Assembly (NCBI GenBank): GCA_026396065.1
Contig: JAPLXO010000011.1
Location: forward strand, 74,748 to 138,747
Origin: Candidatus Nomurabacteria bacterium
GTDB taxonomy: Bacteria > Patescibacteriota > Minisyncoccia > Phycocordibacterales > UBA9973
Direction: 5' to 3'
DNA: 64,000 nucleotides
Part shown: one piece after another, positions 18,547 to 18,660 of the stretch
How the letters are laid out: every line of letters starts with the position of its first letter
Numbering within the stretch: the stretch's first letter is position 1
Made by a program: the position numbers and the translations under genes
Notes under the pieces: generated by a model
The model's input: only the letters and a program-made list of their open reading frames with translations
The model's database searches: none
What the model was told of the DNA's origin: nothing

Positions 18547-18660
18547 AAAAAGCCGTGCAAGTATTTTTTAGGGTGTTTTTACGAACGACGGTTCGTGAAC
18601 TTCAGAAATTTTCTACCAAGAAAATTTCGTACCCTAAAAGGTACTTGCACGGCTTTTTAC
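18547..18660. repeat. ~115-nt structured inverted-repeat element between rpmE and prfA
   Basis: Outer ~29-bp stem aaaaagccgtgcaagtattttttagggt / accctaaaaggtacttgcacggcttttt enclosing two inner hairpins (cgaac-gacg-gttcg and gaaattttc-taccaa-gaaaatttc), flanked by A5/T5 runs. Confidence 0.45.

Follow-up and report, generated by a model that had tools for sequence, protein, structure and literature searches.

The window analyzed here, a stretch of 64 kb, carries the genes for ribosomal protein L31 (rpmE) and release factor 1 (prfA), both on the minus strand, so that rpmE lies upstream and prfA downstream (Table 1). As the first-pass annotation had reported, the spacer downstream of L31 and upstream of RF1 is 130 nt long and contains a nested inverted-repeat element. 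The element begins 2 nt after the rpmE stop codon and ends 16 nt before the prfA ATG. The inverted repeat is real: its 28-nt arms, 56 nt apart in the inverted-repeat search, are 93% complementary, and the element folds at -54.1 kcal/mol (z = -10.2) on the minus strand and at -62.4 kcal/mol (z = -12.4) on the plus strand, with none of 200 dinucleotide shuffles folding as well. The outer stem, described earlier as having two mismatches, consists of 26 Watson-Crick pairs and two others, which are T.G when read on the plus strand and C.A when read on the minus strand. Both inner hairpins were recovered. The cgaac/gttcg hairpin forms part of the 9-bp hairpin P3, whose loop is CGUC on the minus strand and is kept across copies in the alignments, and the second is the perfect 10-bp hairpin P2. 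The A5 and T5 runs are also present, as the outermost bases of the arms; between them the base of the stem is GC rich (GCCGTGC/GCACGGC), and on the plus strand T5 comes after the stem.

Table 1. Positions of the features of the window considered in this study
Feature	Position	Strand	Description and basis
prfA, release factor 1	17559-18530	-	323 aa; 87% identical RF1 in Candidatus Nomurabacteria MAGs
rpmE-prfA spacer	18531-18660		130 nt
Putative extended -10 box of prfA	18537-18545	-	TGTTAAAAT; read from the sequence
Whole palindromic element	18547-18658	- (covariance-model orientation)	112 nt; plus strand folds better
Left arm of outer stem	18547-18574		AAAAAGCCGTGCAAGTATTTTTTAGGGT; inverted-repeat search
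R2 match	18559-18645	-	End to end; 44.7 bits, E = 8e-11
R1 match	18560-18644	-	
Core hairpin P3	18578-18599 (18578-18586/18591-18599)		9 bp, 89%; inverted-repeat search, alignments
Core hairpin P2, A/T rich	18605-18628 (18605-18614/18619-18628)		Perfect 10-bp stem, 4-nt loop
Right arm of outer stem	18631-18658		ACCCTAAAAGGTACTTGCACGGCTTTTT; inverted-repeat search
rpmE, ribosomal protein L31	18661-18879	-	72 aa; Pfam Ribosomal_L31 on identical protein
Degenerate second copy	14956-15012	+	Core hairpins only, no long arms; R1 27 bits (14956-15005); R2 37.2 bits, E = 1.5e-8, model positions 18-67
Structured region around degenerate copy	14930-15100		170 nt, tRNA-Ile to atp operon
tRNA-Ile(GAT)	15103-15175	-	
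Imperfect inverted repeat around tRNA-Ile	15078-15111/15169-15202		34 nt
Repeated stretch over the high-coordinate end of tRNA-Ile	15141-15177; again at about 15235-15271		37 nt, atcaggacagcgttctaccactgaactacacactca

Copies of the element at other loci and inside genes

Two covariance models were used to search for related elements. R1 was built from 18 cores of the three-way architecture described below as type A, and R2 was built only from metagenome copies. Both match the window element, and because no sequence other than metagenome copies entered R2, the membership of the window element in the family is not circular. A degenerate 25-nt A/T-hairpin pattern, which the window copy itself does not match, was found in at least 120 stretches of metagenome contigs and gave no matches in viral contigs; within these stretches R1 confirmed 133 full-length elements among the matches listed. 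About 150 copies, again among the matches listed, lie in Nomurabacteria/Paceibacterota contigs, and the copies are 85 to 156 nt long. Sixteen metagenome contigs and one genome locus (L061) hold two copies each among the matches listed. R1 copies outside the rpmE-prfA spacer include the two at L061, which follow prfA as a tandem pair, one located between atpE and atpF (L050), and one after an unrelated gene and inverted relative to it (L081). Some copies also stand in tandem with remnants of older ones or are nested with them.

Within the window, searches with arm 14-mers allowing 3 mismatches and with R2 with filters off gave no second full copy. A degenerate copy was detected between tRNA-Ile and the atp operon, and R2 with filters off found nothing beyond this copy and the spacer element. 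The region holding the degenerate core contains two more hairpins and folds with z = -5 on both strands. The adjacent tRNA-Ile gene is bracketed by an imperfect inverted repeat, and a stretch over its high-coordinate end recurs nearby; these repeats may be the scar of a rearrangement or integration.

The copies are built alike: a long, near-perfect stem of 15 to 30 bp carries at its tip a conserved core of about 60 nt. Two hairpins make up this core, one rich in A/T with a loop of the UGCU type and the other rich in G/C with the loop CGUC, joined by short junctions that are also conserved. The inner bases of the stem (about 10) are semiconserved, and the outer bases vary from copy to copy, even within one contig (L061, L201, and L156). 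Copies on the same contig have nearly identical cores, with arms that are either shared with compensated differences (L167 and L082) or unrelated (L061 and L201). A search of GTDB genome contigs for the exact outer-arm pattern with a gap returned no matches, which says nothing about the family because the arms are copy specific.

Longer variants of 133 to 156 nt were seen in L143 (1325-1470 and 7661-7816) and L082 (829-963 and 1685-1817). These carry an extra hairpin set into the G/C hairpin of the core, and its presence in both copies on a contig indicates that subfamilies exist. Another subfamily, seen in the flanks of L131, L125, L088, L106, L010, L017, L022, and L025, has a second conserved internal loop farther out (5' CTTTCTYG/3' YNCGACGA) followed by a copy-specific stem, so that some elements exceed the length of the model.

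For copies with two callable neighbors among the matches listed, 32 lie between codirectional genes in the model orientation and 24 in the opposite one; a further 19 have convergent neighbors and 14 have divergent ones. On 75 sides adjacent to a gene end, the palindrome starts a median of 9 nt past the stop codon, and downstream of genes the two orientations number 46 and 29 (both among the matches listed). No transposase was found near the copies: clustering of 810 neighboring open reading frames (ORFs) yielded only housekeeping families, including EF-G, ABC-F, KsgA, RF1, MurC, and UvrD. The longest direct repeat between the flanks averaged 3.8 nt, compared to 3.4 nt in permuted controls (maximum, 3.6 nt), with element ends that are not sharply defined.

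Among the matches listed, at least 14 copies lie deep within long ORFs, with the frame open throughout; 4 are in one orientation and 10 in the other. Ten of these ORFs were scanned, and Pfam domains were found on both sides of the insert in nine: TsaD (two loci), UvrD, a class V aminotransferase (Aminotran_5, NifS-like; two loci), a RecG-like helicase, a XerD-like recombinase (Phage_integrase), MnmA, and PheT. In the tenth, a PMT_2 glycosyltransferase, the Pfam match is N-terminal to the insert only. Orthologues without the element, the window's own MnmA among them, are shorter at this position by about 24 to 33 residues. The inserted peptides are recognizable, with GSATARARGIFQQKNIRA in one frame and HGYFSAEKFLVL in another, and family members have on average 2.3 of 6 frames free of stop codons, compared to 1.2 of 6 in shuffled controls. 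The insert occupies the same site in TsaD of three genomes and in UvrD of three genomes, and in NifS a single insertion site is found with both element orientations. The copy inside MnmA is flanked by 25-bp perfect arms, indicating that the arms belong to the element. We also considered whether the arms are preexisting host terminator stems that received a core, and this was ruled out by the occurrence of 25-bp perfect arms around coding-sequence copies as well. Two other inserts were noted in the same proteins: a further 19-residue insert in MnmA of L167 (residues 127 to 145) relative to the window's MnmA and a different insert of about 35 residues in UvrD of L146, at the place where L111, L093, and L116 hold the element. 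Other insert families may exist.

We consider it probable, at roughly three chances in four, that the window feature is an intergenic copy of a selfish repeat family resembling the Rickettsia palindromic elements (RPEs) and residing in Nomurabacteria and related Paceibacterota (CPR/Patescibacteria).

Covariation and strand asymmetry

Covariation was examined in an alignment of 84 metagenome copies. Standard pairs are formed by 89.5% of the cells, compared to 66.9% in shuffles, and compensatory changes occur in 27 of the 31 pairs. The covariation score is 0.51, versus 0.15 in shuffles (0 of 500 reached the observed value) and 0.05 to 0.09 in slid controls. P2, which is helix 5 of the alignment, is 98.7% paired, with compensatory changes in 7 of its 10 pairs.

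The pairs are almost always Watson-Crick. With the arms aligned independently, the mismatches in the model orientation are A.C in 148 cases and G.T in 51 (p = 4e-12), indicating that wobble pairs are tolerated on the complementary strand, which is the plus strand of the window. The complementary strand also folds better in 137 of 147 copies, an energy asymmetry that is not independent from one copy to the next, since part of it stems from the core they have in common. This one-strand wobble tolerance indicates that the single-stranded form of the window's plus strand is selected. Since orientation is mixed with respect to host transcription, the selected single strand need not be mRNA, and a single-stranded DNA intermediate would be an equally good candidate.

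Strong covariation combined with wobble tolerance on one strand might stem from a function that the folded strand has in the cell instead of from selfishness. Such copies would be small structured RNA genes, or a single-stranded DNA or RNA signal given by the wobble-tolerant strand, with loops and junctions that bind a host factor and copies that the cell needs. The conserved loops (UGCU and CGUC) and junction bases are in keeping with this, as is the plus strand of the window, on which the stem is followed by T5. However, there is neither room for nor any sign of a promoter belonging to the element, and with orientations mixed both downstream of genes and inside ORFs, the favored strand is often the untranscribed one. 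The copies in coding sequences leave the frame of the host gene open, and presence is patchy among sister species. We give this explanation a small chance. The earlier suggestion of a small structured RNA likewise lacks support as the main nature of the element: the Rfam scan gave no family and the copies follow no orientation rule relative to genes. Scanning the window and 20 related loci against Rfam 15 at the gathering threshold returned only tRNAs (two of them in the window), and the spacer at E values of up to 10 gave only spurious microRNA and snoRNA matches far under threshold.

The rpmE-prfA junction in relatives

We compared 80 prfA loci from GTDB species representatives, of which 79 were usable for the spacer, as the L050 sequence starts within prfA and lacks the upstream flank. 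All 79 have rpmE directly upstream of prfA, with a spacer of 0 to 225 nt. The element occupies this spacer in 19 of the 79. The type A three-way architecture, with arms that differ but remain complementary, was found in 16 loci and comprises a long outer stem, two hairpins (one A/T, with a loop of the UGCU or UGGU type, and one G/C, with the loop CGUC), and short junctions that are conserved; the sequence of the outer stem is wholly different between species, with complementarity kept. The whole element is inverted in L025, L049, and L005, inner-arm asymmetries included, and L040 has a truncated copy of the L005-type sequence. In 12 loci, there is no spacer and the genes overlap at TAAATG, while many distant loci have a plain long hairpin followed by a T-run and a TGnTATAAT box (L056, L057, L076, and others).

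On a neighbor-joining tree of RF1, loci with the element, with its inverted form, with another structure, or with an empty site are intermingled among sister taxa, as in the sister pairs L010 (type A) and L025 (type A inverted), L047 (type A) and L053 (type B), and L011 (type A) and L032 (none). The comparison with relatives that had been proposed thus revealed patchiness among sister species, in which the element is present, inverted, replaced, or missing together with the spacer. Taken together with remnants of older arms, the interleaved states form the pattern of an unstable, replaceable insert, unlike that of a conserved regulator. The only match in a look-up of the L31 protein was an identical 1,970-bp Logan contig with the element in the same orientation, which is uninformative on divergence, and an exact look-up of the RF1 protein gave no match.

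Several other structures were observed at this junction. In L003 (2450-2480), L047, and L053, the present structure is followed downstream by what is left of an older 3' arm, indicating serial insertion or replacement at one site; the L003 remnant reads ...ATACACGCACGGCTTTTTG, near the window's arm, and L047 and L053 retain GCTTTCTAAAAAGTG.GCCTGCGACGA. In 12 other Nomurabacteria species (L004 [2160-2250], L014, L027, L028, L030, L031, L035, L036, L037, L039, L042, and L053), the spacer holds an unrelated conserved nested hairpin, type B, in which a long A/T-rich stem surrounds CCCUGCGCCCUUC-hairpin(loop AGUA)-GGGACCCUCGGG. Type B is always in the orientation of the gene, has compensatory changes in 12 of 20 pairs, has no Rfam match, and was not found elsewhere when 1.3 Mb of related sequence was searched; type B might be an RNA specific to this locus or else a less common repeat family. 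A type C structure was seen only at rpmE-prfA and only in two species (L015, 2400-2490, and L026, 2400-2480), which have the motifs GGAGUACCC and CCGUCUCGCAAGCGAG in common. The loci in which rpmE and prfA abut or overlap (TAAATG or TAATG) are L006, L007, L012, L018, L024, L032, L038, L045, L048, L052, L067, and L077. This arrangement implies translational coupling in these 12 relatives, so that within the clade the junction alternates between coupling and separate promotion of the two genes.

In the window, a putative extended -10 box stands 6 nt ahead of the prfA ATG, with no Shine-Dalgarno sequence, implying a leaderless or near-leaderless prfA mRNA. A simple two-hexamer promoter scan did not call this box. 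Similar TGnTATAAT boxes are found 6 to 7 nt ahead of the prfA ATG in L002, L003, L004, L056, and L057. More generally, TGnTAnAAT extended -10 boxes without a Shine-Dalgarno sequence are common 6 to 11 nt ahead of start codons in this lineage (window positions 18531-18545 and 18880-18915; upstream of ATGs in L002, L003, L004, L056, L057, and L081), which suggests that leaderless or near-leaderless mRNAs may be widespread in it.

A near-perfect stem of 25 to 30 bp has the geometry of an RNase III substrate. The element might have been a cis-regulatory RNA specific to rpmE-prfA, such as an attenuator, an RNase III site, or a leader responsive to L31 or RF1, that sets the L31:RF1 ratio. Its recurrence in the spacers of 19 relatives with compensatory stem changes would agree with this. 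In L008 and L029, moreover, no T-run follows the stem, whose end is 9 to 10 nt ahead of the prfA ATG, so that transcription of prfA must pass through it there. In contrast, many loci unrelated to this one hold the same element, which also lies between divergent genes and within ORFs; it is inverted at rpmE-prfA itself in three loci; and sister species have a plain hairpin or, in the 12 TAAATG loci, no spacer. The dispersed and intragenic copies largely refute such a regulator as the primary nature of the element, to which we assign a slim chance. The proposal of an attenuator or processing site in the rpmE-prfA transcript is likewise unsupported as a primary role, given the lack of an Rfam match, a family with no orientation rule, and a prfA gene with what appears to be its own -10 box. 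A secondary, terminator-like role of the window copy is plausible from its anatomy.

Also considered was an intrinsic terminator of rpmE, bidirectional and elaborate but otherwise ordinary, with an oversized loop and no relation to repeats elsewhere. The GC-rich base of the stem between A5 and T5 lies right after the stop codon, and more distant relatives have, at this junction, a plain long hairpin terminator accompanied by a T-run and a promoter. However, what is conserved is the 56-nt two-hairpin "loop," which recurs at about 150 other places among the matches listed. An intrinsic terminator is defined by a short loop of 3 to 8 nt, a GC stem, and a T-run; here T5 is present and the loop is 56 nt, and a consensus terminator scan of the window did not call the element. 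Across the family, a T-run follows the palindrome on the sense strand of the gene on 20% of gene-downstream sides and 21% of control sides, indicating that the family is not a generic intrinsic terminator. Because R2 matches the window element independently, a terminator is refuted as the complete explanation and keeps a very slight chance, while it is possible that the window copy has acquired terminator function. There is next to no chance that the element is an inverton, in which the long inverted repeats around a short segment would recombine and flip it to control prfA: both orientations do occur at this locus in different species, but the inner-arm asymmetries (e.g., a T.C mismatch) are inverted too, so that whole elements rather than the inner segment differ in orientation, the 56-nt segment has no promoter-like sequence, no invertase is nearby, and the Logan contig is identical in orientation.

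Under the selfish-repeat reading, the window copy probably also serves as the rpmE terminator. Its GC-rich stem, with A5/T5 flanks that are shared only with the closest relatives of this copy, L002 and L003, would end or pause rpmE transcription and shield the rpmE 3' end. Transcription of prfA would begin at the gene's own extended -10 box and give a leaderless mRNA.

Relation to known palindromic repeats

The family behaves as selfish DNA of the RPE or repetitive extragenic palindrome (REP) kind that was presumably mobile, at least formerly. Pairing is maintained by compensated changes in both arms. A more specific version is possible, if doubtful: the family may be an undescribed class of selfish palindromes in CPR bacteria that is recognizable by its apical two-hairpin core rather than by its ends, with arms that are rebuilt or homogenized locally and with spread via a folded single strand of one polarity and without a dedicated transposase. 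Arm rebuilding would use inverted copying of flanking sequence or hairpin-templated repair. If this is true, the class supplies new peptide loops to the essential proteins TsaD, UvrD, RecG, MnmA, and PheT in some of the smallest known genomes.

The genomes of CPR/Patescibacteria rank among the most streamlined known; to our knowledge, their repeats have been little described. Full-text literature searches found no description of palindromic or MITE-like repeats in Patescibacteria, CPR, or Parcubacteria, which is not proof of novelty. A palindromic repeat located at gene ends and within essential coding sequences, as in the reduced genomes of Rickettsia, suggests a recurrent feature of genome reduction. 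The element accounts for lineage-specific insertions of about 25 to 35 residues in CPR proteins, and its strong covariation without a dedicated RNA gene can mislead gene callers and noncoding-RNA screens. Its variable spacers are useful for strain typing, and it provides a test case for the maintenance of long perfect palindromes. At the rpmE-prfA junction, it is one of three alternating states, alongside translational coupling and a plain terminator.

Several structured elements with a superficial resemblance were set aside. Hammerhead ribozymes have the junction strands CUGANGA, GAAA, and UH around three stems; the junction strands here are 0 to 2, 3 to 5, and 1 to 3 nt (AC, UCGUG, and AAG) on one strand, with their complements on the other, and there is no Rfam match. 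Twister, hatchet, and pistol ribozymes are likewise ruled out by the junction lengths and the lack of Rfam matches. Integron attC sites have R''/L''-L'/R' boxes (RYYYAAC...GTTRRRY) and a variable center and lie downstream of cassette ORFs, whereas the arm ends here have no GTTRRRY/RYYYAAC, the center is conserved, and the flanks are syntenic housekeeping genes. The window copy resembles a Rho-independent terminator in its GC-rich stem base, the T5 after it, the A5 before it, and its position straight after a stop codon; it differs in its 28-bp stem, its conserved two-hairpin loop of 56 nt, and a family without T-run enrichment.

Like MITEs such as Correia/NEMIS, ERIC, and BOX/RUP/SPRITE, the copies are small, noncoding, hairpin-forming repeats cotranscribed with their neighbors, and some MITEs act as terminators or RNase III targets, e.g., SPRITE (terminator-like) and Correia (PMC10969869). 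Of the readings offered in the first-pass annotation, a MITE-like insertion comes nearest, in that copies occur at unrelated loci, in both orientations, inside ORFs, and with presence or absence among sister species. MITEs, however, have terminal inverted repeats common to all copies and target-site duplications. Here the arms are not conserved as shared terminal repeats, no clear target duplication was seen, and no partner transposase was found among the neighboring ORFs, so that the MITE label itself was dropped.

A REPIN consists of two inverted REPs. A REP is defined as a 20- to 40-bp stem-loop with an end tag, GTAG or CGTC, that is conserved between copies, and REPs occur inside genes but mostly downstream of ORFs; CGTC REPs have no dedicated transposase (PMC3733652). 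The copies described here resemble REPs in lying mostly just downstream of ORFs, between codirectional or convergent genes (with 14 between divergent genes), in being occasionally intragenic, often in replication and repair genes, and in probably folding as single strands. They differ in that CGTC is the loop of an inner hairpin, the unit is 85 to 150 nt with a three-way junction and variable arms, and no RAYT was seen near the copies. We therefore do not assign them to the REPs or REPINs: CGTC is not an end tag, the junction is three-way, and the arms are unconserved.

The closest likeness is to the RPEs, which are palindromes of about 150 bp that often lie in frame within Rickettsia genes (PMC10969869). 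Both are short palindromes of about 100 to 150 bp that form a long hairpin (112 nt in the window and 85 to 156 nt for other copies) in a reduced genome, and both are dispersed between genes and in frame within unrelated housekeeping genes, each lengthening the encoded protein by a short peptide, and no transposase is associated with either (PMC10969869, PMC3733652). The likeness is one of described features. The host belongs to the CPR/Patescibacteria rather than the Alphaproteobacteria, and because it is a Nomurabacteria-like CPR bacterium, membership in the named RPE families is not claimed. In addition, the number of copies per genome appears low, and the conserved part is a two-hairpin apical core on arms that are largely copy specific. 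With this conserved apex and its variable, self-complementary arms, the family is not simply another member of the RPE/REP kind.
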